Positions 26,309 to 44,549 of a DNA stretch of 64,000 nucleotides are shown in pieces. Origin of the DNA: Escherichia coli (GTDB lineage: Bacteria > Pseudomonadota > Gammaproteobacteria > Enterobacterales > Enterobacteriaceae); NCBI RefSeq assembly GCF_048403405.1, contig NZ_CP183129.1. One strand, 5' to 3'. Within the stretch, counting starts at the first letter, position 1, and every line of letters begins with the position of its first letter. The notes beneath the pieces were generated by a model. It ran no database searches, had not been told where the DNA came from, and saw only the letters and a list, made by a program, of their open reading frames with translations. Both the position numbers and the translations under genes were made by a program.

Positions 26309-26342
26309 GCAGGAGTACCAGTGCGGTACTCCTGTTGGTTTT
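26309..26342. terminator. Bidirectional hairpin between convergent yhiD and chuV (gcaggagtacc-agtgc-ggtactcctg)
   Basis: Perfect 10-11 bp inverted repeat. Confidence 0.6.
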
Positions 26343-27111
26343 AATGATCGAGGACGATCAGGGGTGAATGGTTGGCAGGATCTTTAAGTACGGTAATATC
26401 CGCGCCGTAAAGCATGGTCAGCGCCTGCTGTGTCAATACGTCCTGTGGTTTACCATTTGCGATAACCCTTCCTTTTTGCATTAATACAACACGGTCTGCA
26501 TAACGCGCGGCAAGATTTAGATCGTGCAATACGCAGCAAACATTGAACTGCCGTTCGTGAACTAACTGGCGTAATAAACGGAACAAGTGCTGCTGATGGT
26601 GAATATCCAGCGCCGAAGTTGGTTCATCAAGAAATAACCATTTCGGTGAGGGAGTAGGTTCCCAGAGTTGCACCAGCAGGCGCGCTAATTGCACGCGCTG
26701 TTGTTCACCACCGGATAATTGCCGATAGTCGCGGTTTGCTAACGCCTGACAGTCACATAACGCCATTATTTGTGCTGTTTCATTATCCTGATTACCAGTA
26801 CGATGCGGATGCCGACCCATCTGGATAACTTCTTGTACGCTGAATGGAAACGCCATGTGGCTATTTTGACGCATCACGGCCCGGTGTTTCGCCAGTTCAG
26901 TAATCGACCATTCATTTAATGGCTTATTAAACAACCGACATTCGCCGCTATCAGGTTGAAGATAGCCGGTTAACTGGCGAAGCAGCGTAGATTTTCCCGC
27001 ACCATTAGGGCCGAGAATGGCAACAATTTCCCCACCGGGAAAAGTCAGCGAGACATTGTCAGTCAGACGCCGCCCCTGAAGGCTATAAACCAGATTCTGG
27101 GCGCTGATCAT
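26341..27111 (-). CDS. chuV: Hemin ABC transporter ATP-binding protein
   Basis: About 256 aa from [10 protein letters not shown]...; Walker A (GPNGAGKST), ABC signature (LSGGEQQRV), Walker B (LFLDEP); start overlaps the chuU stop. Confidence 0.9.
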
Positions 27112-28100
27112 GTGATCCTCCGGTTGCGCAGAATCAACCACATAAAATAAGGACCGCCAAGCAGGCTGGTTAATAATCCCACGGGCATTTCTGCTGGCTG
27201 TACCAGCGTGCGGGCAAGCGTGTCTGCCATCAGCAATAAACAGGCTCCGGCGAGGGCGGAGCAAGGGATTAGCCAGCGGTGATTTGCCCCGGTAGTCATA
27301 CGAATCAGATGCGGGATCACCAGGCCAATAAAGCCGATAATGCCGCTTACCGATACGGCGGCACCAACGAGCAGTGAGCTCACTAACAGTAATTGCTGGC
27401 GTTTACGCTTAACGTTCACGCCGAGGTAGTGGGCTTCTTCATCACCGAGCTGCAGTAAATTCAGCGTTCCGGCGAGACAAGTTGTTGCGATAATGGCCGG
27501 TAGGATGAATGAACTGGCAACCAATAACGTCGGCCATTGCGCCTGTCCAAGATTGCCCATCATCCACAATGTGAGTTGTCGTAGCTGCTGCTCATCGCCG
27601 ATATAGCTCAGGATGCCGATCGCTGCGCCGCACAGGGCATTGATGGCGATACCGGCGAGTAATAATTGCATCATGCTGCCATCGCGATGGCGCTGCGTGA
27701 TGAGAAAAATGATGGTGCAGACCACTAAACTTCCGGCAATGGCAAACACCATTTGCTCATAGAGCACCAGCACCACTGGGAAGGAGAAGGGCAGCACAAT
27801 AGCAACGCCAACCATTAATGCAGAACCGCTACTGACGCCGAGTAATCCAGGGTCAGCCATTGGGTTGCGAAAAAGCCCCTGCATAATTACCCCGGCGGTT
27901 GCCAACGCTGCACCTACCAGCACCGCCAGCAAAACCCGTGGTAGACGAATATTGAGCCAGATATCGCGGTATTCCTCATCAAAAAGGGCATCAAAACTGA
28001 TCTTTAACGCTCCCTGACTGGCACCGAACAGCACCAGGGCAAGCAATAATAGTGATAGCCCCATAAAGACCCTGGCGGATGAAAATGAATCCTTGAGCAC
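27108..28100 (-). CDS. chuU: Hemin ABC transporter permease (FecCD family)
   Basis: 330-aa polytopic membrane protein; operon context. Confidence 0.9.
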
Positions 28101-28150
28101 GCAAAACTCCGTTATGACGTTGCGGCGCGGAGAGTCTGCGCCGCATGGGA

Positions 28151-28774
28151 TTACGCCGGTTTCAGGTCAGGTTCAATCAGACTGTAGATCTGCTTGTTGA
28201 GTGCTGGCGCGTTTGCCAGTTCATGAATGTGTGCAGCGACATCGGCACGGTGAACAAAACCATGACACTCCTGATTTTGTATCCGTTGTGCTTTGCCCGT
28301 TGCCGCCCCATCAAGCAGACCGCCAGGGCGGAGAATGGCGTAATCAAGCTGGCTGGTTTGCAACCAGCTTTCCGCCAGCGTTTTTTCCCGTACCGCCTGA
28401 CCAAACGCAGCCTTTGCCCGCTCCGATAAAAACGGCCAGCTATCGCCGCATCCCAAAGAGGTCACCAGAATCATGCGACTAATGCCGGCCTTTTCGGCCT
28501 CATCAATCACTGTTCTGTGCGCCAGATAATCCTGAGCTCCTCCCATTGTTGAGATGATAAGCGCATCCGGGCCAGCTGCGTGGCAAGCAGCCGCAACTAC
28601 GCTGGCATCACAGGCGTCGCCTGTAAAAACCTGTACGCCTTGTTGCGCCAGTTTCGTGGCGGCATCGGCATGACGAACGACAGCAACGACCGGACGTTGT
28701 TCCGCCAGCGCCAGTTCAAGCGTTCTGGCACCCACACCTTTTCCGCCTGCGCCAAAGAGTAGCCACGGCGTCAT
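28151..28774 (-). CDS. chuY: NAD(P)-binding Rossmann-fold protein ChuY (anaerobilin reductase-like)
   Basis: 207 aa; N-terminal nucleotide-binding motif (LLFGAGGKGVG); position in the chu operon. Confidence 0.8.
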   Translation of the reverse strand: MTPWLLFGAGGKGVGARTLELALAEQRPVVAVVRHADAATKLAQQGVQVFTGDACDASVVAAACHAAGPDALIISTMGGAQDYLAHRTVIDEAEKAGISRMILVTSLGCGDSWPFLSERAKAAFGQAVREKTLAESWLQTSQLDYAILRPGGLLDGAATGKAQRIQNQECHGFVHRADVAAHIHELANAPALNKQIYSLIEPDLKPA

Positions 28775-29268
28775 CAGGCGTGTTCCTTTAACGATGCCGC
28801 CAGAGCATGGAAAGCGTTGACCTGTTCGCTCAGGAGCTGACGATGGTCATCCCTGCCGAGGAAGATTTTCAGCATGGCGCTGCCTTCCTTATTGAAAAAG
28901 AGAATAGAGGCGGTGTCCATGCCCATAAATTTACGTTCGATCAAGGCAATATGTGTGCAGTTTTCTGCTTTGATATGCCCGGACATGCCGTGCTTTCCGC
29001 GTAGGTTGAAATAGCCGTGGCGGTGGAAACCCGAAGGCAGTTCGCCGCTAAATTCGAGGATTACATCGGCAGTATGTACTAACGTGGTGACGTTGCCCCA
29101 TTCGCAGACGGTATCCCAGACAGTATCGAATTTATCGCCTGACACTATGGTAGAGGAGGGCAGATTTTTCACTACTTCCAGCAGTGTGGTGTTGTATTGT
29201 TCGGCTACCACCTCCAGCGTACCGTCCGGCTCCGTTTTCAAAAATTCTTGTAACGAGACATGGCTCAT
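28774..29268 (-). CDS. chuX: Heme-binding/trafficking protein ChuX
   Basis: 164 aa; operon position between chuW and chuY; stop overlaps the chuY start. Confidence 0.8.
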   Translation of the reverse strand: MSHVSLQEFLKTEPDGTLEVVAEQYNTTLLEVVKNLPSSTIVSGDKFDTVWDTVCEWGNVTTLVHTADVILEFSGELPSGFHRHGYFNLRGKHGMSGHIKAENCTHIALIERKFMGMDTASILFFNKEGSAMLKIFLGRDDHRQLLSEQVNAFHALAASLKEHA

Positions 29269-29280
29269 AAATCACTCCTG

Positions 29281-30618
29281 TTATGGTTTTTCACGCACAA
29301 TCGCTGGCGCATTAAGTACCTGAATTAGTTCATTAAGAGACTGCAAAATATTGCTTGCCCAGAAACGACCTTCATTAGTCAGCCGCAGGCAAGTTGACGC
29401 ATCGCGACTTAAGCCTTTTTGGTGCCATTGAGCCAGTAACGGCGCGAGTTTTTCGGCATGTGGCGTAAGTTCATCCAGCGGTACACGCGCTGTTTCAACA
29501 CCTGACTGCAAGGTATGACGCCATTGCGCATCACGTTCGGCGTTACGCATGATCATCATCAGCGGTTTTTTGCCTGCCGCGACGGATTCATGCCAGGTCT
29601 GAAGATTGCGTTCGTTCATCCAGGAGTAACCATTAATCGAACCGCCGGCTCCGGAACCAAAGGCCAGACAATCGGCACCTTGTTTAATCAGCAGGTTATA
29701 GAGATTGCGTTCGCGTGTGGTACGGCCCCAGTGGCTGTTACTGATGCAGCGCCAACCGGCTTCGTCCATGAAGTCACACCCTTGCAGATAAAGATCGCGA
29801 CGTTCTGCCGGAGAGGGCACGGTAGTGCGCCCATTTTCCACGGCTTTGCCCAGCGGTGTATTGGGCAGGACATTGAGCGCATAGAGATCGACGCCGTCGA
29901 GACCGATATCGCGAGCAATAGCCAGATCTTCTCCCCAGGTTTGCGCATCCTGACCCGGCAGGCCAAACAGCAGGTCACAGACCACCGCAGCACGGTCGCG
30001 TTTGACCAGGCTTTCCATAAACGCAATGGCGGTTGGGCCATCCGAGGTGCGGGCCATTTTCTTACGGATTTTGCTGTTAAACGACTGAATACCAATTGAG
30101 AAGCGGTTTGCTCCTGCATCAAGGCAAGCATCGATTCGCTCAGCGTCAAAATTCAGTACCCGGCCTTCGATAGTGATTTCACAATCAGGGGCCAGTGGCA
30201 GCTTTTCTCGTAATATATTGATAATTCTGGCTAAATCGTGTGCAGAAAGCGCGGAAGGCGTGCCGCCACCGAAATAGACCGCGTGGATGGGGGCAGACTG
30301 ATGCAATACGCTGTCCGCTTCCATTTCTATTTCACGAATCAGGGCGTCGGTATAATGAGCACACGCATCCTCATTAAAACGGTTCTGATAAAAACCACAA
30401 AACGTGCAGTGTGTCGCACAAAAAGGAATGTGTAGATAAACCAGTCGCTTACGTGGTGATACCGTTTGATTGATCATCTCTTGCCAGGTCTGTGCCAGTT
30501 GCTCTTTGGCAACCGGAATGGCTCCACGAAACGGCATCATGGCGCGCCTGTCTTTAAATGGCTGATCACCGTCTAAAGCAAAATGTGGCGTGAGATCCAG
30601 GGTGTTATTTGCGTTCAT
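29281..30618 (-). CDS. chuW: Radical-SAM anaerobic heme-degrading methyltransferase ChuW (HemN-like)
   Basis: 445 aa; radical-SAM Cys cluster (CATHCTFC). Confidence 0.88.
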   Translation of the reverse strand: MNANNTLDLTPHFALDGDQPFKDRRAMMPFRGAIPVAKEQLAQTWQEMINQTVSPRKRLVYLHIPFCATHCTFCGFYQNRFNEDACAHYTDALIREIEMEADSVLHQSAPIHAVYFGGGTPSALSAHDLARIINILREKLPLAPDCEITIEGRVLNFDAERIDACLDAGANRFSIGIQSFNSKIRKKMARTSDGPTAIAFMESLVKRDRAAVVCDLLFGLPGQDAQTWGEDLAIARDIGLDGVDLYALNVLPNTPLGKAVENGRTTVPSPAERRDLYLQGCDFMDEAGWRCISNSHWGRTTRERNLYNLLIKQGADCLAFGSGAGGSINGYSWMNERNLQTWHESVAAGKKPLMMIMRNAERDAQWRHTLQSGVETARVPLDELTPHAEKLAPLLAQWHQKGLSRDASTCLRLTNEGRFWASNILQSLNELIQVLNAPAIVREKP

Positions 30619-30637
30619 TCGTCTGATTTAAATCCAT

Positions 30638-31552
30638 TTATTGCGGCCAAAGCTGCTGGTGTAAAGACTCAACGACATCAGCAATACGCGGACCCATTCC
30701 CAGAATCAGGTTTTGATCAACGGTGATAATGCGCTGGTTTTTCCATGCGGCAGTGTGGGTAATTCCGGCAATAGAACGTAGCCGATTAATATCGCCATCG
30801 ACCATTTGTGAGGTTACGACAATCACTTCTGGATTGGCCGCAATCAGTGATTCTGCACTGTAGCTTTTGTACTGCTGGTGGGTTGCGACGTTTTCTGCTC
30901 CGGCAAGCGAAAGAATGGCGTCCGCGACGCTGCCTTTACCGGCAACCTGTGGCGCACTTCCGCCTGCGGAGAGAATAAACATGGCTTTAACCGGGGCTTT
31001 TTTGGCCGCCACGTTTTGCTGTACTCGCTCCAGGCGTTGGTTGATCTGTGTCACCAGCGCCTCGCCTTGTTCAGGAACCTGTAGCGTTTTTGCCAGTTGG
31101 CGAATGTTGGCGTACATCTGCTCAAGGGTGGCAGGCACACGCGGCAGGGTAACGACGTTGACTTTCTGCGCCCGCAGCTGGTCGAGCACAATTTGTGGCC
31201 CGGCATCCTGCCAGGTAATTACGCTATCCGGGCGAAGTGACAAAATGCCTTCGCTGCTGAGTTGTTTCCAGTAGCCAATATGCGGCAGTTTGGCGGTTTC
31301 TGGTGGGTAAGATGTCGTTTCATCGACACCAACCACGCGTTCGCCAGCGCCCATCGCGTAGATTAGCTCCGTCAGCGATCCTCCTGCGACCACGATACGT
31401 TCGGCAGCCGTTACGCTAAAAGCCCAGCTAAGAGCCAGTACTGCCGTAAACAATTTTTTTCGTTTTACCGCGGTCTTCGCGGCAGAGGCCACGGCTGAAA
31501 TACATAACGTCAGTGGGGAAAAAAGAAACGGCCTGGTGATGATCCTTGGCAT
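30638..31552 (-). CDS. chuT: Periplasmic hemin-binding protein ChuT
   Basis: Start chosen at the internal Met (MPRIITRPF..., ~304 aa) because a Fur box lies inside the longer ORF-track call. Start still uncertain; a GTG start nearer the signal peptide is possible. Confidence 0.8.
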   Translation of the reverse strand: MPRIITRPFLFSPLTLCISAVASAAKTAVKRKKLFTAVLALSWAFSVTAAERIVVAGGSLTELIYAMGAGERVVGVDETTSYPPETAKLPHIGYWKQLSSEGILSLRPDSVITWQDAGPQIVLDQLRAQKVNVVTLPRVPATLEQMYANIRQLAKTLQVPEQGEALVTQINQRLERVQQNVAAKKAPVKAMFILSAGGSAPQVAGKGSVADAILSLAGAENVATHQQYKSYSAESLIAANPEVIVVTSQMVDGDINRLRSIAGITHTAAWKNQRIITVDQNLILGMGPRIADVVESLHQQLWPQ

Positions 31553-31581
31553 AATATGAGAACTCTTATCAAGTTGAGAAT

Positions 31582-31607
31582 GATCATGATTATCATTTGA
31601 GTTATAT
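31582..31607. promoter_or_regulatory. Fur box at the chuT operon promoter (gagAATGATcATgATTATCATT)
   Basis: Close match to the GATAATGATAATCATTATC consensus about 30 bp upstream of the chuT ATG. Confidence 0.6.
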
Positions 31608-31927
31608 ATGAAATACAACCGTCGATTCAATACGCACGGCGTTACAAGCGTATTTATTTTTGATTTTTATCAAGATGCTTCGTCAGCTAACGTTCTTGTT
31701 ACCGACTAAATTTCAGCGCGGGAAAAAGCTGAGAACCCAGAGATATCAAGGCTTGCAGAGCAAAGCGAAGAGAAAATTATCACTGTTAACGACAAAGTTT
31801 AGTGATGAGGTCATGGGGGAATAACCATAAAAACAAAGTGGTTTCCAGGGCGCAGGATAAGTTTCATAACCCCCTGTTTATTGTGTTAATGGCGGTTAAA
31901 AAAAAGCTTGATCATAAAAAATTGATC

Positions 31928-31946
31928 GATAATAATTCTCATTATC
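31928..31946. promoter_or_regulatory. Fur box at the chuA promoter (GATAATAATTCTCATTATC)
   Basis: 15 of 19 positions match the Fur consensus; about 290 bp upstream of the chuA ATG, implying a long 5' leader. Confidence 0.65.
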
Positions 31947-32235
31947 ACGTTTGTATTTAACAAAATACGGCCATATGGATAACAAAGCCATATCATTTAC
32001 AAGGGGTAACGCACAGCGCTCTTCACTCCTGATGGGGCATATCGTTTTGCCTGACAAAGAGGGCGTGCTTTTGCGTATTTGCCGAGATACCAGGCAATTT
32101 CATGGGATATAAACGCCTGTAAACTCACCCGGCGAATATTATCGCTCTGAATTTTAAATAAATTTATTTTTCGCCAGCCACCCCGGTATTAACCCAGGCA
32201 GCCAGCATTTTTTATTTTCCTCATGGAGAATCGCT

Positions 32236-34218
32236 ATGTCACGTCCGCAATTTACCTCGTTGCGTTTGAGTTTGTTGGCTTTGGCTGTTTCTGCCACCTT
32301 GCCAACGTTTGCTTTTGCTACTGAAACCATGACCGTTACGGCAACGGGGAATGCCCGTAGTTCCTTCGAAGCGCCTATGATGGTCAGCGTCATCGACACT
32401 TCCGCTCCTGAAAATCAAACGGCTACTTCAGCCTCCGATCTGCTGCGTCATGTTCCTGGAATTACTCTTGATGGTACCGGACGAACCAACGGCCAGGATG
32501 TAAATATGCGTGGCTATGATCATCGCGGCGTGCTGGTTCTTGTCGATGGTGTTCGCCAGGGAACGGATACCGGACACCTGAATGGCACTTTTCTCGATCC
32601 AGCGCTGATCAAGCGTGTTGAGATTGTTCGCGGACCTTCAGCATTACTGTATGGCAGTGGTGCGCTGGGTGGAGTGATCTCCTACGATACGGTCGATGCA
32701 AAAGATTTATTGCAGGAAGGACAAAGCAGTGGTTTTCGTGTCTTTGGTACTGGCGGCACGGGGGACCATAGCCTGGGATTAGGCGCGAGCGCGTTTGGGC
32801 GAACTGAAAATCTGGATGGTATTGTGGCCTGGTCCAGTCGCGATCGGGGTGATTTACGCCAGAGCAATGGTGAAACCGCGCCGAATGACGAGTCCATTAA
32901 TAACATGCTGGCGAAAGGGACCTGGCAAATTGATTCAGCCCAGTCTCTGAGCGGTTTAGTGCGTTACTACAACAACGACGCGCGTGAACCAAAAAATCCG
33001 CAGACCGTTGAAGCTTCTGATAGCAGCAACCCGATGGTTGATCGTTCAACAATTCAACGCGATGCGCAGCTTTCTTATAAACTCGCCCCGCAGGGCAACG
33101 ACTGGTTAAATGCAGATGCAAAAATTTACTGGTCGGAAGTCCGTATTAATGCGCAAAACACGGGGAGTTCCGGCGAGTATCGTGAACAGATAACAAAAGG
33201 AGCCAGGCTGGAGAACCGTTCCACTCTATTTGCCGACAGTTTCGCTTCTCACTTACTGACATATGGCGGTGAGTATTATCGTCAGGAACAACATCCGGGC
33301 GGCGCGACGACGGGCTTCCCGCAAGCAAAAATCGATTTTAGCTCCGGCTGGCTACAGGATGAGATCACCTTACGAGATCTGCCGATTACTCTGCTTGGCG
33401 GAACCCGCTATGACAGTTATCGCGGTAGCAGCGACGGCTACAAAGATGTTGATGCCGACAAATGGTCATCTCGCGCGGGGATGACTATCAACCCGACTAA
33501 CTGGCTGATGTTATTTGGCTCATATGCCCAGGCATTCCGCGCCCCGACGATGGGCGAAATGTATAACGATTCTAAGCACTTCTCGATTGGTCGCTTCTAT
33601 ACCAACTATTGGGTGCCAAACCCGAACTTACGTCCGGAAACTAACGAAACTCAGGAGTACGGTTTTGGGCTGCGTTTTGATGACCTGATGTTGTCCAATG
33701 ATGCCCTGGAATTTAAAGCCAGCTACTTTGATACCAAAGCGAAGGATTACATCTCCACGACCGTCGATTTCGCGGCGGCGACAACTATGTCGTATAACGT
33801 CCCGAACGCCAAAATCTGGGGCTGGGATGTGATGACGAAATATACCACTGATCTGTTTAGCCTTGATGTGGCCTATAACCGTACCCGCGGCAAAGACACC
33901 GATACCGGCGAATATATCTCCAGTATTAACCCGGATACCGTTACCAGCACCCTGAATATTCCGATCGCTCACAGTGGCTTCTCTGTTGGGTGGGTTGGTA
34001 CGTTTGCCGATCGCTCAACACATATCAGCAGCAGTTACAGCAAACAACCAGGCTATGGCGTGAATGATTTCTACGTCAGTTATCAAGGACAACAGGCGCT
34101 CAAAGGTATGACCACTACTTTGGTGTTGGGTAACGCTTTCGACAAAGAGTACTGGTCGCCACAAGGCATCCCACAGGATGGTCGTAATGGAAAAATTTTC
34201 GTGAGTTATCAATGGTAA
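32236..34218 (+). CDS. chuA: TonB-dependent outer membrane heme/hemoglobin receptor
   Basis: 660 aa; signal peptide, TonB-box-like N-terminus (ETMTVTA), C-terminal beta-barrel ending in aromatic residues (FVSYQW). Confidence 0.93.
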   Translation: MSRPQFTSLRLSLLALAVSATLPTFAFATETMTVTATGNARSSFEAPMMVSVIDTSAPENQTATSASDLLRHVPGITLDGTGRTNGQDVNMRGYDHRGVLVLVDGVRQGTDTGHLNGTFLDPALIKRVEIVRGPSALLYGSGALGGVISYDTVDAKDLLQEGQSSGFRVFGTGGTGDHSLGLGASAFGRTENLDGIVAWSSRDRGDLRQSNGETAPNDESINNMLAKGTWQIDSAQSLSGLVRYYNNDAREPKNPQTVEASDSSNPMVDRSTIQRDAQLSYKLAPQGNDWLNADAKIYWSEVRINAQNTGSSGEYREQITKGARLENRSTLFADSFASHLLTYGGEYYRQEQHPGGATTGFPQAKIDFSSGWLQDEITLRDLPITLLGGTRYDSYRGSSDGYKDVDADKWSSRAGMTINPTNWLMLFGSYAQAFRAPTMGEMYNDSKHFSIGRFYTNYWVPNPNLRPETNETQEYGFGLRFDDLMLSNDALEFKASYFDTKAKDYISTTVDFAAATTMSYNVPNAKIWGWDVMTKYTTDLFSLDVAYNRTRGKDTDTGEYISSINPDTVTSTLNIPIAHSGFSVGWVGTFADRSTHISSSYSKQPGYGVNDFYVSYQGQQALKGMTTTLVLGNAFDKEYWSPQGIPQDGRNGKIFVSYQW

Positions 34219-34266
34219 TCATCTGCCCCGATATTTCGGGGCATTTATCTGGAAGGAAGAGAGACA

Positions 34267-35295
34267 ATGAACCACTACACACGCTGGCTTGAGTTAAAAG
34301 AACAAAATCCCGGAAAGTACGCGCGTGACATCGCAGGTTTAATGAATATTAGCGAAGCAGAACTGGCATTTGCACGCGTCACGCACGATGCGTGGCGGAT
34401 GCGCGGCGATATCCGTGACATTCTGGCGGCGCTCGAAAGTGTTGGCGAGACCAAATGTATTTGTCGTAATGAATATGCAGTCCATGAGCAAGTTGGTGCG
34501 TTCACAAACCAGCATTTGAACGGACATGCCGGATTGATCCTCAATCCACGCGCGCTGGATTTGCGTCTGTTTCTCAATCAATGGGCCAGTGTTTTTCACA
34601 TTAAAGAAAATACGACTCGTGGCGAACGCCAGAGTATTCAGTTCTTTGATCATCAGGGCGATGCATTACTAAAAGTTTATGCCACCGACAATACCGATAT
34701 GGCGGCATGGAGTGAGCTTCTGGCACGGTTTATCACCGATGAGAATACGCCGCTTGAGTTAAAAGCCGTTGATGCGCCAGTCGTTCAAATGCGAGCCGAT
34801 GCCAGTGTGGTCGAGCAAGAGTGGCGGGCGATGACCGACGTTCATCAGTTTTTTACGTTGCTCAAGCGCCACAACCTGACGCGCCAACAGGCGTTCAATC
34901 TGGTGGCAGACGATTTGGCCTGCAAAGTATCCAACAGTGCGTTGGCGCAAATTCTTGAATCTGCACAGCAGGATGGCAATGAAATCATGGTGTTTGTTGG
35001 CAACCGTGGCTGCGTACAGATTTTCACTGGCGTGGTAGAAAAAGTGGTGCCAATGAAAGGTTGGCTGAATATTTTTAACCCGACGTTTACTCTTCATCTA
35101 TTAGAAGAGAGCATTGCTGAAACCTGGGTAACCCGTAAACCTGCTAGTGACGGTTATGTGACCAGTCTGGAATTGTTTGCCCATGATGGTACGCAGATAG
35201 CGCAACTTTATGGTCAACGTACAGAAGGCGAACAGGAGCAAGCGCAATGGCGTAAGCAAATTGCTTCGCTGATACCGGAAGGCGTTGCTGCATAA
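34267..35295 (+). CDS. chuS: Heme oxygenase / heme-degrading protein ChuS
   Basis: 342 aa; immediately downstream of chuA. Confidence 0.88.
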   Translation: MNHYTRWLELKEQNPGKYARDIAGLMNISEAELAFARVTHDAWRMRGDIRDILAALESVGETKCICRNEYAVHEQVGAFTNQHLNGHAGLILNPRALDLRLFLNQWASVFHIKENTTRGERQSIQFFDHQGDALLKVYATDNTDMAAWSELLARFITDENTPLELKAVDAPVVQMRADASVVEQEWRAMTDVHQFFTLLKRHNLTRQQAFNLVADDLACKVSNSALAQILESAQQDGNEIMVFVGNRGCVQIFTGVVEKVVPMKGWLNIFNPTFTLHLLEESIAETWVTRKPASDGYVTSLELFAHDGTQIAQLYGQRTEGEQEQAQWRKQIASLIPEGVAA

Positions 35296-36849: not shown

Positions 36850-38073
36850 TTATGGGATTATATTCTGGTAATGATTTGATAAGCGAATTCTTTTGCCAGT
36901 TGGTGTTTCTATTTCCACCCCATAATTTATAGTTTTTTCATCAGGTAGCGATCTCTTTAAATAAGGTGCGCATGACATTTTTTTTGGGTTAAGCGTCTCG
37001 CGTTGAAATACTTCGAATTGATATTCAGACATTTCTGCCCATGTTTGAATTTTATTGTATCGGGAGAGTGTCGTAAAGGCTTTAACTTGCTTATAACATT
37101 GTTTTTTGAATTCTTGCTGATATTTTAATATGTCATTGTATGAAATATTGGTTATCCTGGCCTCTAAGAATTTAATTATTGTCGAAGCAATTTCCGCTTT
37201 TGCTCGTAAAAAGTTGTCATTAATGGTTAATAATGTTGAAAATAAACCTTCGATTTGTTTGTCAAGATATTGTTCGTCTTTATATAATTTTGGGGCAGGG
37301 TGTTCTTTATGTGAAAAAATAGTGTCACCTAAATTTGCGTCAGTGAAATTTATATTAAGTAGATCTTCGAAATAAAACCTTGACAAGGTTAGAACGAACC
37401 CGGACAGGTTCTGTCCTGTCATATTGAAATCAATAAAGTTGGTTCCGGCAAAGACTTTCATCCTGTTTTTATTTTCACTGTGCTCAATATATAACTTCGT
37501 CATTTTTTGATACAGGTTTTGAATATCTTTTATATTAGTCGGTAAGTCAGCTCGTTGTTCAGCAATAAAATTAGTATCTGAAAACATGGTTTGGACACTG
37601 AATCTTACTGGTATTCCCTCTTCTACGCTAATTTTAGTTATGATTGCCTTGTCGGGTTTAGGATTAGCGACAACAATGATTCGACATTCAGCACTTTTGT
37701 TTTTTTCGTATCTAATGTTATTAATCTGATTAAGTATTGATTGTGTCTGTTGCGTAAGTGGTGTCGAACTTATCGTTTCAATGTTAGTAATAAGACTTAC
37801 AAGTTGAGTCACAACTTTTGAGTATTCTGCATTTGTATATGTAGTGTTCGTGTGGCACGCATTAATTTGTTGGAGTTGTTGTTGCGCTAAATCAAATTGT
37901 TCAGCGTTATATCCTTCTTCAGACAATGAAAAATTAATGGGTTGCTGTTCTTCCTGATTATCACAAGGCCACATCGGTGTGTCTGGTGTTTTAACATTGT
38001 CGGTATCTGTTGTGCGGTTATAAATATCGCCGTGATATGTATTTATCATACCTGGGGTAAAGTCAATTGACAT
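36850..38073 (-). CDS. Hypothetical 407-aa protein with a C-terminal pentapeptide-repeat region; possibly the intact form of yhiS
   Basis: Long ORF in AT-rich DNA; residues ~205-250 show a 5-residue periodicity ([43 protein letters not shown]); sits where K-12 carries the IS5-disrupted yhiS remnant. Confidence 0.6.
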
Positions 38074-38652: not shown

Positions 38653-39666
38653 TTAAAATAGCATTTGAGTCAAATAGCCCATCAAGATAGCCATACCTAA
38701 GATAACCGTCAGGAATGCAACTATCATCGGCATTCTGAACATTGATTTAAGTAATATCACTTCCGTCAGGCTTGCGCCGGCACTGCCGATGATTAATGCC
38801 ATTAATGCTCCCAGACCCATTCCTTTTGTCATCAGAACAGCTGCCAGAGGGATAACCGCCTCTGCCCGGATATACAGCGGAATTCCGACAACGGCGCTCA
38901 ATGGGATGGCGAAGGGATTATCTGCCCCTGCATGAGCGGCAATCCACTCTGAGGGAATAAAGCCATAAATAAAAGAGCCTATTAATACCCCCAACAAAAG
39001 ATATGGCAGTACATCTTTAAACTGTTGCAACGCATCTTTGGTGGCTAGTTTTATGGGATTAATACTTACCACAGCTTTGGTACTGCAACAGGGAACTACG
39101 GGTTTCTCAATGGCTTTAGCCGCTGGACTACAGCAACTCACTTTTATTGGCATATATGTCGTCCCCGGCGAAGTTTTGGCTTGAGCACAACAATTTGCTG
39201 ATGAGCTTTTACTGGCAATGATATGACGTTCAAATCCCAGAGAATCCAGGATAATACTGGCAAGTACGGAGACGCCGGCGGCGATAATCGCGTACAACAA
39301 GGTAACTTTCCAGCCAAAGGTCACCCACATTAACCCGACGATAATGGGATTAAGTAATGGGGAAACAAATAAAAAAGTGAGGGTCGGACCAAACCCGGCT
39401 TTCGCTGATAACAATCCACGTAACATGGGGATTGTCGAGCAACTACAGAACGGGGTAACGGCTCCCAACAGAGCAGCCAGGAGATAACCTCTCCCTTTTC
39501 TGGCCCCCATCATCTGCTGGATTTTATGGTCTGGCACCTTTTGTCTTATCAGGCTCACACCGGCACTAATCACTATAAACAGCAAAGAAAGCTCAACGGC
39601 GAGAAACACAAACATCTCTGCGGCATCTTGCAGCATCGCAAGCCAACTACTCATACGTAACCTCAT
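38653..39666 (-). CDS. DUF318 / ArsP-like permease with Cys-rich loop
   Basis: 337 aa, about 8 TM segments; TPFCSCSTIP motif; central hydrophilic loop with three vicinal Cys pairs (NCCAQ...VSCCSP...VPCCST). Confidence 0.75.
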   Translation of the reverse strand: MRLRMSSWLAMLQDAAEMFVFLAVELSLLFIVISAGVSLIRQKVPDHKIQQMMGARKGRGYLLAALLGAVTPFCSCSTIPMLRGLLSAKAGFGPTLTFLFVSPLLNPIIVGLMWVTFGWKVTLLYAIIAAGVSVLASIILDSLGFERHIIASKSSSANCCAQAKTSPGTTYMPIKVSCCSPAAKAIEKPVVPCCSTKAVVSINPIKLATKDALQQFKDVLPYLLLGVLIGSFIYGFIPSEWIAAHAGADNPFAIPLSAVVGIPLYIRAEAVIPLAAVLMTKGMGLGALMALIIGSAGASLTEVILLKSMFRMPMIVAFLTVILGMAILMGYLTQMLF

Positions 39667-39761
39667 TGAATAAATCTATATTTCCAGAATAATCGAAATG
39701 AAATTCAGATCAAGATATTTCTGGTATTATCGAAATATCAACCAGACAAAGGGGGTGTCAT

Positions 39762-40058
39762 ATGCAGTTGGAAGAAGTTGCTAAAGCGCTGAAAGAGCTA
39801 GGTCACCCGACCCGTTTGTTCATATTCAAACACCTGGTCAAAGCGGGGGAACAAGGTTTGCCGGTCGGTGAGTTGCAAAAGCAGCTTGGGATACCCGGCT
39901 CTACACTCAGTCACCATATTTCAGCACTGGTATCGGTAGGGCTGGTCAAACAAAACCGTGAGAGTCGAACGCTGATGTGTGTTTCGCAATACGCAATGCT
40001 GGAAGCGATAATTGAATTCTTACGCGAGGAGTGCTGCGTAAATAGCAAAATTGCCTGA
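39762..40058 (+). CDS. ArsR/SmtB-family winged-helix regulator (non-canonical, C-terminal ECCV)
   Basis: 98 aa; HTH region (LPVGELQKQLGIPGSTLSHHISALVSVGLV) typical of ArsR/SmtB; divergent from the permease gene; lacks the ELCVCDL metalloid site of canonical ArsR. Confidence 0.7.
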   Translation: MQLEEVAKALKELGHPTRLFIFKHLVKAGEQGLPVGELQKQLGIPGSTLSHHISALVSVGLVKQNRESRTLMCVSQYAMLEAIIEFLREECCVNSKIA

Positions 40059-41962: not shown

Positions 41963-42316
41963 TTAACTACAAATGTTCTTACTGTCTTCGGAACAATTTT
42001 GTCGAGCCAGGTTGCGGACAATCACCTGAACCTTTTCCTGTTCGCATCGCCAGGCCTGCTCAATAATTTTCGCGGCCCATGATGGAATATGCGGTGATAA
42101 GCGGTAATGAACCCACTTACCCTGCTTGCGATCCAGCAATAGCCCACTTTCACGCAGCAATGCCAGGTGGCGGGATATCTTGGGCTGCGACTGATCGAGG
42201 GCAGTACAGAGATCGCAGACGCATAATTCTCCCAGCTCGCTGAGCAGTAAAACGATGCCCAGACGGGTTTCATCAGCAAGAATTTTGAACAGTTGGATGG
42301 GTAACAGAAATGACAT
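41963..42316 (-). CDS. arsR: Arsenical resistance operon repressor
   Basis: 117 aa; ELCVCDL metalloid-binding motif within the HTH. Confidence 0.95.
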   Translation of the reverse strand: MSFLLPIQLFKILADETRLGIVLLLSELGELCVCDLCTALDQSQPKISRHLALLRESGLLLDRKQGKWVHYRLSPHIPSWAAKIIEQAWRCEQEKVQVIVRNLARQNCSEDSKNICS

Positions 42317-42468
42317 ATTGCGCTCCTGATTGTTGCAGGTAGTGTCTCTCTTCGAAGCGGATAAGTCAAAAACATATATGGTTTAACGAATGTGTATGTG
42401 CAGAGGAAGGTAATAGGTGTGAATTTTGAGTTGGCTATTCATTTGAAAGGAGGTCTGAATCAGGACGT

Positions 42469-42555
42469 AAAAAAACCGACTTTGCGTCGGTTTTTTACTT
42501 TCCAGCCCTGAGTTGGTGGCTCTGGCTGGAGTGAGAGAGCTCTTATCTAACAGTT
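42469..42555 (-). ncRNA. agrA: agrA-like small RNA (repeat unit homologous and antisense to dinQ); ends approximate
   Basis: Minus-strand terminator (ccgac-gcaaa-gucgg plus U-run) at 42469-42498; adjacent 26-nt block ctggagtgagagagctcttatctaac also occurs in the dinQ leader. Confidence 0.5.
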
Positions 42556-42703
42556 CAATACTATTAGCCAGTGGCTAACATTGCAAGAATTAGCGATTTC
42601 TTCAGCTGGAGAAGGGACAGTTTGCTATACATGTTGGTGAAAGAGGATTTATATACTTTCATCGGGTCGCTGCCGTACCAAGCCTTGTCCGAATCCGGAC
42701 GTA

Positions 42704-42790
42704 AAAAAAACCGACTTCGCGTCGGTTTTTTACTTTCCAGCCCTGAGTTGGTGGCTCTGGTTGGAGTGAGAATGCCATCATCTAACGCAT
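42704..42790 (-). ncRNA. agrB: agrB-like small RNA (second repeat unit); ends approximate
   Basis: Second copy of the terminator plus the ttggagtgagaatgccatcatctaac block; the proximal copy is the one expected to be antisense to dinQ. Confidence 0.5.
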
Positions 42791-42848
42791 CAATGCTAAT
42801 ACCATACTGAAACTATTGCAAGGACGTGCTGGTTTTATAACCTGCATG

Positions 42849-42868
42849 TACTGTATGATTATCCAGTT
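42849..42868 (+). promoter_or_regulatory. LexA (SOS) box of the dinQ promoter: TACTGTATGATTATCCAGTT
   Basis: CTGT-N8-CCAG, one mismatch from CTGT-N8-ACAG. Confidence 0.7.
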
Positions 42869-43059
42869 AGCTCTGAGGCATTTTCACTCTGGTAATGCGC
42901 ATAAACGCTTTCAAAGTCCTGGTCAGAAGTACGGGTGGTGCCGTTAACTGATGCTCTGGCCGGAGTGAGAGAGTTCTTATCTAACAATGAGACATGCGCC
43001 GTGACAGGCAGTGGATGAGTAAGCGGATGCATTCTCACTCCATAGCATGGAGAAAACGG

Positions 43060-43143
43060 GTGATTGATAAAGCAATCATCGTTCTTGGGGCGTTAATTGC
43101 GCTGCTGGAACTGATCCGCTTCCTGCTTCAGCTTCTGAACTGA
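43060..43143 (+). CDS. dinQ: DinQ, 27-aa single-TM toxic peptide (type I toxin-like), GTG start
   Basis: GTG-initiated ORF encoding MIDKAIIVLGALIALLELIRFLLQLLN, preceded by GGAG; downstream of the LexA box. Confidence 0.75.
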   Translation: MIDKAIIVLGALIALLELIRFLLQLLN

Positions 43144-43162
43144 TAGCGGAAACGTAGCTAAG

Positions 43163-43190
43163 GGCAAAGAGCACACCACTCTTTGCCCTT
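43163..43190. terminator. Bidirectional hairpin between convergent dinQ and gor (ggcaaagag-cacaccact-ctttgcc)
   Basis: 9-bp inverted repeat between the two stop codons. Confidence 0.55.
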
Positions 43191-43196
43191 TAACAT

Positions 43197-44549
43197 TTAA
43201 CGCATGGTCACGAACTCTTCTGCCGCCGTCGGGTGAATGGCGACGGTATTGTCGAAGTCTTTTTTGGTCGCCCCCATCTTCAGCGCCACCGCGAAGCCCT
43301 GCAACATTTCATCCATACCAAAACCAATGCCGTGAATTCCGACAATCTTCTCTTCCGGTCCAACGCATACCAGTTTCATGCGGCACGGCTGGCGGTGAGT
43401 GGTGACGGCGGTATACATCGCGGTGAAAGAGGATTTATACACTTTCACCTGATCGTCGCCGTACTGCTCGCGCGCCTGCGGTTCCGTTAAACCAACAGTC
43501 CCAATCGGCGGATGGCTGAAGACCACGGTCGGAATGTTGCTGTAATCGAGATGCTCATCCGGCTTGTTATTAAACAGGCGTTCAGAGAGACGGCGACCCG
43601 CTGCAACTGCTACCGGTGTCAGTTCCACTGCACCCGTGTTATCGCCCACCGCGTAAATACCTTCAACGTTGGTATTTTGATATTTATCGACGACGATATA
43701 GCCTTTTTCGTTAGTTTTAACGCCAGCGGCTTCCAGGTTGATGTTGTCATTGGCAGGCTCGCGACCAATCGCCCAAATCAGGCAATCCACCGTTTCACTA
43801 CGCCCATCTTCCAGCTCCAGCGTCAGGCTGCCATCGGCATTTTTCACCACCGCTTTCGGGATGGCATTGGTATGCAACTGTGGGCCTTCGGCGTTCATCA
43901 CTTCGACCAGCGTTTCAGAGATCATCGGGTCGAAGCTGCGCAGCGGCGCGTGTTTACGTACAAACAGATGCGTTTTCGCGCCGAGGCCGTTAATCACGCC
44001 CGCCAGTTCAACGGCGATGTAACCCGCGCCAACAACCGCTACGCGCTCTGGCAGCGCCGGAAGGGCGAAGAAGCCATCAGAATCAATACCGTATTCCACG
44101 CCCGGAATATCCGGGTGGCTCGGACGACCGCCGGTGGCGATCAGAATATGATCGGCCGTGATGGTTTCACCGTTAACTTCCAGCGTTTTGGCATCAACGA
44201 AGCGGGCAAAGCCTTTGATTACATCAACGTTATTTTTACCGAGCACGTTTTCATAGGAAGTATGAATACGGTCGATATAGGCGGTACGGCTGGCGATCAA
44301 CGTTTCCCAGTTGAATTTATTGATAGTGGTATCAAAACCATAATCCGGGCCGTACATGTGGATCGCTTCACGGATTTGCGCCGCGTGCCACATCACTTTC
44401 TTCGGTACGCAGCCAACATTTACGCAGGTGCCGCCCAGTTCTTTGGCTTCAATCAGCGCGCATTTCTGACCGTACATAGCCGCGCGGTTGATGGAGGCGA
44501 TACCGCCGCTGCCGCCGCCGATGGCGATGTAATCATAGTGTTTAGTCAT
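43197..44549 (-). CDS. gor: Glutathione reductase
   Basis: 450 aa; FAD-binding GGGSGG, redox-active disulfide ([13 protein letters not shown]). Confidence 0.95.

Follow-up and report, generated by a model that had tools for sequence, protein, structure and literature searches.

The arsR-gor spacer of an Escherichia coli chromosome carries a complete dinQ/agrAB type I toxin-antitoxin locus

We analysed a 64-kb stretch of an Escherichia coli chromosome (hereafter the window) and found that the 880-bp spacer between arsR and gor (42317-43196) is very probably the dinQ/agrAB type I toxin-antitoxin locus of the chromosome, set up to work as it does in K-12. The locus is complete and ordinary here, and it is already known and well characterised in K-12 MG1655 (b4613, b4712 and b4713; Weel-Sneve 2013, Kristiansen 2016), where flanks, order and strands are the same. 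An earlier note, made from the letters of the sequence, had placed an SOS-type DinQ/Agr module between arsR and gor and named it the known type-I DinQ/AgrB module. Synteny, Rfam, NCBIfam and alignment to K-12 all agree with that reading, all defining features of the K-12 locus that could be tested lie where they had been placed, and we found no sequence evidence against the identity.

The spacer is 100% identical to that of annotated E. coli chromosomes on which RefSeq calls dinQ. Against MG1655, where it measures 876 bp, it aligned over its full length at ~95-97% identity, with agrA, agrB and dinQ mapping one to one and the gene order arsR / agrB / agrA / dinQ / gor kept. The DinQ protein, the LexA operators, the dinQ promoter and the antisense target are identical to those of K-12, the leader contains the four switch elements, as it does there, and AgrB is again the well-matched RNA. 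The stretch between the two repeat units (42610-42680) is strongly diverged from K-12 and O157-like. The features of the locus are collected in Table 1.

Table 1. Features of the dinQ/agrAB locus and its flanks, in window coordinates.
Feature	Position	Strand	Description and source
arsR	41963..42316	-	Left flank; ORF; RefSeq label arsR on identical locus
agrB	42469..42550	-	Cognate antisense (antitoxin) sRNA; 5' antisense segment, stem-loop 1, terminator 42469-42498; mapped from MG1655 b4713, Rfam RF02891
agrB promoter	42558..42586	-	-10 TAGTAT 42558-42563, 17-nt spacer, -35 TTGCAA 42581-42586; read from sequence
agrA	42704..42785	-	Paralogous sRNA; terminator 42704-42733; mapped from MG1655 b4712, Rfam RF02891
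agrA promoter	42793..42821	-	-10 TAGCAT 42793-42798, 17-nt spacer, -35 TTGCAA 42816-42821; read from sequence
Weak second LexA-like site	42827..42846		6th in window by weight matrix; not significant alone
LexA operator 1	42849..42868		Overlaps dinQ -10 (TATGAT, 42854-42859) and transcription start
dinQ primary transcript	42866..43195	+	~330 nt; +44 processing site at 42909
Leader sequence 1 (U16-U28)	42881..42893	+	Pairs with sequence 2, locking the +1 transcript (PMC5066626 definition)
AgrB antisense target (G88-A119)	42953..42984	+	Contains sequence 2 (42959-42971); identical to K-12
Sequences 3 and 4	43032..43052	+	SD-sequestering hairpin; sequence 3 43032-43043, sequence 4 with SD GGAG 43047-43052
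dinQ CDS	43060..43143	+	27 aa, GTG start, single-pass membrane toxin; NCBIfam, RefSeq WP_001295215.1 on identical DNA
dinQ terminator hairpin	43160..43190	+	Inverted repeat; common to dinQ and 3' end of convergent gor
gor (gorA)	43197..44549	-	Right flank; ORF; RefSeq annotation of identical locus

The GTG-initiated 27-codon ORF singled out in the earlier note proved to be dinQ exactly as drawn. It encodes (M)IDKAIIVLGALIALLELIRFLLQLLN, which scores 54 bits against the NCBIfam equivalog model toxin_DinQ (NF041472; cut-off 30) and is identical to the K-12 protein, with two synonymous differences at the DNA level; Pfam has no model for DinQ. Across Escherichia species, the DinQ substitutions in intact loci are all synonymous. 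K-12 experiments showed that dinQ produces the GTG-initiated "peptide V" (PMC3567139). We regard it as highly improbable that the product is instead the longer 49-aa ORF starting at the ATG at 42994, as in the original dinQ annotation: that frame (42994-43143) is open in the window; however, the K-12 +44 RNA yields a peptide sized like the 27-aa form and the K4stop mutation abolishes the phenotype (PMC3567139), the SD GGAG (43049-43052) stands 7 nt before the GTG, the NCBIfam models and the RefSeq annotation carry the 27-aa form, and a plasmid homologue has an ATG start where this GTG stands.

Upstream of this ORF, the LexA box that the earlier note had read, TACTGTATGATTATCCAGTT at 42849-42868, was confirmed as written. 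Because the bare CTGT-N8-ACAG pattern was not significant in the window (21 matches vs 16.8 expected), we used a weight-matrix scan instead, with a matrix of 17 operators from which dinQ was excluded. The box gave the best score in the 64 kb (21 bits vs 14.4 for the next site), a value reached by 0/200 shuffles, and the result was unchanged when the molR operator, which looks suspiciously like the dinQ box, and other less certain sites were dropped from the matrix. Its sequence is identical to that of the K-12 operator, for which a heterology index (HI) of 4.83 was published, and the K-12 promoter carries a second LexA operator (HI 13.82) near the first (PMC3567139); the weak second site of the window likewise has the K-12 sequence. 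The alignment revealed identity to K-12 throughout 42774-42892, and the LexA operator, the dinQ -10 and leader +1 to +27 are all unchanged. The operator covers both the -10 and the +1; LexA binding and SOS control of dinQ are predicted, and DNA damage would be expected to derepress the ~330-nt transcript.

We fitted the coordinates of this transcript from the published elements (U16-C28, G88-A119, G184-G187 and the A108/C112/A115 mutations), which places +1 at 42866 by the numbering of 2016 and at 42865 by that of 2013; a length of ~330 nt was reported for the K-12 transcript (PMC3567139). None of the four published leader elements is missing from the window, and the sole change that touches a pairing keeps a wobble: at leader +28 the C of K-12 is replaced by U (C28U), with a U.G pair still possible. 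When the +1 RNA was folded to its MFE, duplex 1:2 formed with all 13 of its pairs. Leader +29 to +178 is identical to K-12, and the hairpin of sequences 3 and 4 differs only in its 3-nt loop (43044, A for C; C179A). The dinQ terminator hairpin (dG -18.6, z = -4.9) has T-A at one base pair where K-12 has A-T, a compensatory change that preserves the stem. With these elements in place, the primary dinQ RNA would be translationally silent, sequence 1 pairing with 2 and the SD lying within the 3:4 hairpin, and in the +44 form, shortened by 43 nt at its 5' end, sequence 2 would be free to pair with 3 and the SD would open, so that the 27-aa DinQ could be made from the GTG at 43060. The peptide would then insert into the inner membrane and depolarise it. 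The 2:3 versus 3:4 step is taken from published SHAPE data, because in our MFE folding the +44 RNA showed neither the published open-SD structure nor the 2:3 versus 3:4 alternation; this fold was not used as evidence.

On the arsR side of the promoter lie the two tandem repeat units that the earlier note had described. A repeat search recovered them 235 bp apart (98 nt, 88% identity), together with a 34-nt block that occurs three times (42519-42552, 42754-42787 and 42953-42986). Both units match the Rfam model AgrB (RF02891) on the minus strand, one at 42467-42550 with 108.1 bits (E = 3e-18 over the whole window) and the other at 42702-42785 with 98.3 bits (E = 4e-16 over the whole window). 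We considered and rejected a chance match as the source of the repeats, given that both Rfam scores are more than twice the gathering score of 40 bits. When the 64-kb window was searched for further dinQ or agr copies, the two AgrB matches alone came up. The Rfam result also upholds the suggestion that the units correspond to the agrA and agrB antisense RNAs; the copies had been left unassigned, and synteny with the MG1655 annotation identifies the arsR-proximal copy as agrB and the dinQ-proximal copy as agrA.

Some details of the earlier description changed on comparison. The 26-nt block said to be shared with the leader is present, but its copies are similar without being identical: against the leader, the agrB unit agrees at 24/26 positions and the agrA unit at 18/26, and the units agree with each other at 20/26. 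The leader copy had been set at 42959-42984, one base out of register; the copy in register with 42526-42551 is 42960-42985. Likewise, the two minus-strand terminators, described as identical, are both there but match at 29/30 positions, their sole difference being in the loop.

AgrB differs from its K-12 counterpart by one base (A11G) and folds with an MFE of -30.1 kcal/mol (z = -5.6), AgrA folds at -22.9 (z = -2.4) with an A.C mismatch in stem 1, and the terminator hairpins of the agr RNAs fold. The position of the agrB promoter fits the mapped agrB 5' end (42550), and consensus-like -10 and -35 elements were reported in K-12 (PMC3567139). The agrA promoter stands back to back with the dinQ promoter in a stretch identical to K-12. 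A generic terminator scan of 42300-43250 found none, though Rfam and folding reveal the agr terminators clearly, because flanking A/U runs extend the stem and the T-tail rule fails. A generic promoter scan missed the dinQ promoter and both agr promoters, the latter because only 8/12 positions match.

The first 32 nt of AgrB can pair with leader +88 to +119 through 30 Watson-Crick pairs and one G.U, with one mismatch (dG -57 kcal/mol). The duplex energy is the same as in K-12: A11G turns one A-U pair of the K-12 duplex into G.U and leaves the predicted energy unchanged. In 16 related loci the leader and Agr covary naturally, which supports the pairing. Our own results cover the conservation of each element, the family matches and the capacity to pair. 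The dinQ/AgrB mechanism is defined by K-12 experiments (PMC3567139, PMC5066626), and it is from these that we infer SOS induction, processing to the +44 form, the toxicity of DinQ, cleavage by RNase III and the dominance of AgrB at the present locus. Constitutive 82-nt AgrB (42550 to 42469, minus strand) would pair through its 5' 32 nt with the leader target, re-close the SD hairpin and expose the duplex to RNase III, thereby keeping DinQ low.

AgrA, by comparison, is a paralogue whose 5' end is poorly matched to this leader, forming 24 Watson-Crick pairs and 4 G.U with 4 mismatches over 32 nt (dG -39.6), and it probably contributes little here. It differs from K-12 AgrA at 5/82 positions; at its 5' end it carries a block of the "A type" (GAATGCCATCATC), in place of the GATAGCCATCATC of K-12. 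We think it unlikely that both Agr RNAs are antitoxins on dinQ here, with AgrA a working second repressor. Deletion of agrA in K-12 did raise full-length dinQ RNA 3-fold, compared with 4.6-fold for agrB (PMC3567139), and AgrA retains an intact promoter and terminator, the pairing capacity given above and a match to other dinQ leader alleles circulating in the species. However, K-12 AgrA failed in vitro both to close the SD hairpin and to inhibit +44 translation (PMC5066626), the agrA deletion did not cause UV sensitivity (PMC3567139, PMC5066626), the window AgrA is no better matched than that of K-12 (24 vs 25 Watson-Crick pairs), and the mismatch in its own stem 1 goes with a z of only -2.4.

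The earlier note also called the module intact, and the window indeed holds the full three-block form. This is a meaningful statement because in ~15% of complete E. coli genomes the locus is truncated and lacks the LexA box and both divergent promoters. Major lineages, ST131 among them, have such a promoter-less dinQ, and the SOS promoter was lost in these ~15% of genomes via recombination between the repeats. Although promoter-less versions are this common in the species, it is very unlikely that this strain carries the locus as a silent relic: everything that the truncated form has lost (LexA box, dinQ -10/+1, leader 1-119 and both agr promoters) is retained in the window, and alignment to K-12 revealed no disabling changes.

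The dinQ-like (dql) genes of Enterobacteriaceae chromosomes and plasmids encode a related peptide under a related 5' UTR architecture (PMC5066626), and we found a plasmid example accompanied by an AgrB-like RNA at 70.6 bits. The window gene is a true dinQ and not a dql, with 54 bits for toxin_DinQ vs 14.9 bits for DinQ_rel/DqlB and its arsR-gor position. The E. coli system tisB/istR-1 is likewise an SOS-induced, LexA-controlled small membrane toxin, its inert primary mRNA is activated by 5' processing (+42 in tisB, +44 in dinQ), and its divergent, trans-acting antisense RNA likewise pairs far upstream of the SD and leads to RNase III cleavage (PMC5066626). The two systems nevertheless have no sequence relationship, tisB/istR-1 has a single antisense gene where dinQ has a tandem pair, and tisB uses a ribosome standby site where dinQ uses an SD hairpin switch (PMC5066626). 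In the type I systems shoB/ohsC and zor/orz, too, the antisense RNA gene lies 5' of the toxin mRNA, with no overlap, and its product pairs with the long 5' UTR of that mRNA, but toxins and RNAs differ from those of dinQ/agrAB. Neither of these systems is known to be SOS-regulated.

The result for the window is itself of little consequence, being a textbook locus recognised correctly from raw sequence, for which the Rfam and NCBIfam models are curated and the K-12 experiments complete. The block alleles, which whole-spacer identity bands cannot separate, were typed with allele-specific 62-mers and with concatenated 118-mers, probes with flanks so short that they cannot seed megablast on the wrong allele. 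Across Escherichia, the 32-nt dinQ leader target has at least four sequence types, and in each complete locus sampled one resident Agr matches the leader with no more than two unpaired positions. For the leader type of K-12 and the window, the matching copy is the arsR-proximal gene (agrB). For the leader type found in O104:H4, O157:H7 and others, which together make up ~43% of complete E. coli genomes, and also for that of E. albertii and E. whittamii, it is the dinQ-proximal gene (agrA), and where the agrA position matches the leader, "AgrB" is the mismatched copy. The joint count for the B-type leader, at least 94%, is a lower bound, because the B-type probe also picks up D-type leaders.

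This pattern of matches suggests that agrA and agrB may swap functional roles between leader types, and a literature search found no description of such a swap in searchable papers. Whether the agr genes are two antitoxin specificity variants, and not "one antitoxin plus one dead copy", we judge to be evenly balanced. If they are, the AgrA of the window would serve as cognate antitoxin for another dinQ allele that is common, and the three-block repeat would be a device for switching antitoxin identity via gene conversion or unequal recombination, one that also allows deletion of the SOS promoter altogether. For the type I toxin-antitoxin field, the comparative result is useful as natural covariation support for Agr-dinQ pairing, and the K-12 assignment of AgrB as active and AgrA as inactive is probably not transferable to many pathogenic lineages.

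The spacer between arsR and gor had been read in the earlier note as a known and intact DinQ/AgrB module, and our analysis supports this interpretation while making minor corrections to an otherwise confirmed observation. The spacer aligns over its entire length with MG1655, where gor, dinQ (b4613), agrA (b4712), agrB (b4713) and arsR are annotated, and the arrangement in the window is complete and like that of K-12. Coordinates transferred through this alignment identify the arsR-proximal unit as agrB. A spacer match was present in 5,422 of 5,426 complete E. coli genomes, several annotated chromosomes being 100% identical to it and naming the ORF 'damage-inducible type I toxin DinQ'. The feature in the window is already known and ordinary. 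The proposed GTG-initiated ORF was confirmed; its score is 54 bits with the NCBIfam equivalog toxin_DinQ (cut-off 30), compared with just 14.9 bits for DqlB, and it has no Pfam match.

Both predicted antisense RNAs were recovered as minus-strand matches to Rfam AgrB (RF02891; gathering score 40) at 42467-42550 (108.1 bits) and 42702-42785 (98.3 bits), one-to-one with the MG1655 annotation and with no others above the gathering score in the 64 kb. The tandem units were likewise found, together with a 34-nt block in three copies, but the 26-nt blocks said to recur in the dinQ leader are not identical, agreeing with it at 24/26 positions in the agrB unit and 18/26 in the agrA unit. The leader copy in register with 42526-42551 lies at 42960-42985 rather than 42959-42984, and the supposedly identical agr terminators agree at 29/30 positions, with the mismatch in the loop. 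A sub-threshold AgrB match was also seen in the dinQ leader (42899-42984, minus; 22.7 bits, E = 0.66). This leader resembles a third, degenerate agr repeat, which suggests that the antisense target originated by duplication of the sRNA gene.

Elements of the dinQ/agrAB locus in window coordinates
Feature	Position	Strand	Remarks
arsR	41963-42316	minus	
arsR-gor spacer	42317-43196		880 bp
Repeat units	42469-42566, 42704-42801		98 nt each, 235 bp apart, 88% identical (repeat search)
34-nt block, three copies	42519-42552, 42754-42787, 42953-42986		repeat search
agrB	42469-42550	minus	via MG1655 alignment
agrB promoter			TTGCAA-17 nt-TAGTAT, 7 nt before mapped 5' end (sequence reading)
agrA	42704-42785	minus	via MG1655 alignment
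agrA promoter			TTGCAA-17 nt-TAGCAT, 7 nt before mapped 5' end (sequence reading)
LexA box 1	42849-42868		
dinQ -10	42854-42859		TATGAT, within LexA box 1
Leader sequence 1	42881-42893		
+44 site	42909		
AgrB target G88-A119	42953-42984		
Leader sequence 2	42959-42971		
Leader sequence 3	43032-43043		
Leader sequence 4	43047-43052		with GGAG
dinQ GTG start	43060		+195
dinQ ORF	43060-43143	plus	encodes (M)IDKAIIVLGALIALLELIRFLLQLLN
dinQ terminator	43160-43190		
gor	43197-44549	minus	

The LexA box is present as quoted. The half-site pattern CTGT-N8-ACAG by itself shows no enrichment in the window. Box 1 is the window's best match to a LexA weight matrix (17 operators, dinQ left out), leading by more than 6 bits and reached by 0 of 200 shuffles. 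The matrix also reveals a weak second site at 42827-42846, 2 bp upstream of box 1; in K-12, a second operator was reported near the first (PMC3567139). Folding energies are -30.1 kcal/mol (z = -5.6) for AgrB, -18.6 (z = -4.9) for the dinQ terminator and -22.9 (z = -2.4) for AgrA, whose value is due to an A.C mismatch in its first stem.

The locus is flanked upstream by arsBC, a second ArsR/SmtB regulator with a permease (38653-40058, between slp and arsC), slp-dctR, the chu haem-uptake cluster and the acid-fitness island, and downstream by rlmJ, prlC, rsmJ, dtpB, uspAB, pitA and others. The chu/shu cluster (26342-35295) sits between yhiD and dctR within the acid-fitness island and carries the chuA 5' UTR thermoregulator (32207-32238, plus; Rfam, 60 bits); it is absent from K-12, which places the window outside the K-12 lineage. 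Known Rfam sRNAs are GadY (16571-16684, minus; 150 bits) and ES205 (22462-22533, minus; 105 bits), the latter just 3' of gadE, and a hypothetical gene with a frameshift occupies about 36957-38073. A 79-aa ORF (42571-42810, plus) overlaps agrA, and in the annotation of some RefSeq genomes the spacer match covers a 'hypothetical protein'. Our guess is that the two are the same, in which case the gene call is probably spurious.

Fitting the element positions of Kristiansen 2016 (PMC5066626) and the point mutations of Weel-Sneve 2013 (PMC3567139) to the sequence places dinQ +1 at 42866 (42865 by 2013 numbering). The window is identical to K-12 over 42774-42892 and 42894-43043. Among its differences, C28U in the leader still allows U.G pairing within duplex 1:2, C179A falls in the SD-hairpin loop, both changes in the dinQ CDS are synonymous, the terminator stem has a compensatory A-T to T-A exchange, and A11G is the sole change in AgrB. 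Separately, 42610-42680, between the agrB promoter and the agrA terminator, diverges from K-12 by roughly 30% plus a 4-nt indel, far above the rest of the locus, and agrees with the O157:H7 and ETEC4069 haplotype; the spacer is therefore a mosaic.

The leader element sequences are present in the window, and their function is inferred from K-12 (PMC3567139, PMC5066626). By this analogy, dinQ would be repressed by LexA and DNA damage would induce an inert transcript of about 330 nt, from which 5' processing to +44 would open the SD for translation of a 27-aa membrane toxin; constitutive AgrB would then pair with leader +88..+119, closing the SD hairpin again and triggering RNase III cleavage. 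The minimum free energy fold of the +1 RNA contains all 13 pairs of duplex 1:2, whereas that of the +44 RNA did not recover the reported switch between 2:3 and 3:4; this step rests on published SHAPE, mutational and translation data (PMC5066626). The 5' 32 nt of AgrB form 30 Watson-Crick pairs with the leader, one G.U pair resulting from A11G and one A.C mismatch common to K-12, with the same dG as in K-12 (-57.0 kcal/mol). AgrA forms 24 Watson-Crick and 4 G.U pairs with 4 mismatches (dG -39.6), and in K-12 it had no inhibitory effect on translation (PMC5066626). AgrB is the cognate RNA in the window's full, K-12-like configuration.

Because identity to the window's spacer is just 90-95% in most E. 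coli genomes (only 174 reach at least 99%), we compared related loci. At least four types of the 13-nt leader-target core were seen among the compared Escherichia loci: B (GAGAGTTCTTATC; window, K-12), A (GAATGCCATTATC; O104:H4, O157:H7-like and others), C (GAATGCCCACATC; ETEC4069) and D (GATAGTCGTCATC; FHI_NMBU_03, E. albertii, E. whittamii, E69). Across Escherichia, the target shows covariation with the 5' ends of the Agr RNAs (window 42754-42787 versus 42953-42986; L005-L012, L014-L018). Each of the 16 complete loci has one resident Agr that leaves no more than 2 positions unpaired against the leader (dG -50 to -67), and the non-matching unit, where present, pairs more weakly (dG -40 to -57); when leaders were set against the Agr sets of other configurations, only 37% attained the level of the matching unit. 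The matching unit is arsR-proximal for B and C leaders, and dinQ-proximal (the 'agrA' position) or the sole unit for A and D leaders.

The agr and leader blocks also recombine, as judged from sequence comparison. One-unit loci (L005, L006, L012, L022) carry a 235-bp deletion between the agr repeats; their remaining Agr matches the leader, and some also lack arsRB. In collapsed loci, an agr unit is joined to the dinQ leader at the common 34-nt block, with loss of the LexA boxes, dinQ promoter, leader 1-~93 and agr promoter, as in ST131 O25b:H4 (L004, 1601-1760), 09-02E (L020) and, independently in an A-type background, CFIAFB20190157 (L021). The ST131 locus also lacks arsR and arsB, and its L15Q is the only non-synonymous DinQ change observed among the compared loci. 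Spacer coverage is below 80% in about 829 of 5,422 genomes (about 15% of complete E. coli). Plasmid pS34_2 (L024, 865-1112) encodes an ATG-initiated DinQ homologue, MIDKAIIVLGALISLLELIRYLLQLMG, with an AgrB-like RNA (Rfam, 70.6 bits) joined directly to its leader, the same architecture as the collapsed chromosomal alleles; 46 plasmid matches were of this kind.

A probe for the A-type leader had matches in 2,343 of 5,426 genomes (about 43%), and concatenated allele-specific probes detected the A-type dinQ-proximal unit along with an A-type leader in 1,670 + 686 genomes, essentially all A-type. The B-type leader occurs in about 1,681 genomes, at least 94% of which also have the B-type arsR-proximal unit. 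A 14-nt perfect inverted repeat joins 42762-42775 and 43029-43042, so the AgrA 5' region has GCAUUCUCACUCCA, identical to the dinQ stretch containing sequence 3; in A-type leader strains, the 2:3 duplex would be lengthened to about 14 perfect pairs. The K-12 papers regard AgrA as inactive (PMC5066626), T1TAdb says only that the more stable of two candidate asRNAs is chosen, and our literature search, in an incomplete library, found no description of an AgrA/AgrB role swap. By predicted pairing, the window's AgrA matches a different, common dinQ allele, the A-type leader; on the same basis, K-12 and the window have their cognate Agr at the agrB position, and E. albertii, E. whittamii and about 43% of E. 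coli genomes have it at the agrA position.
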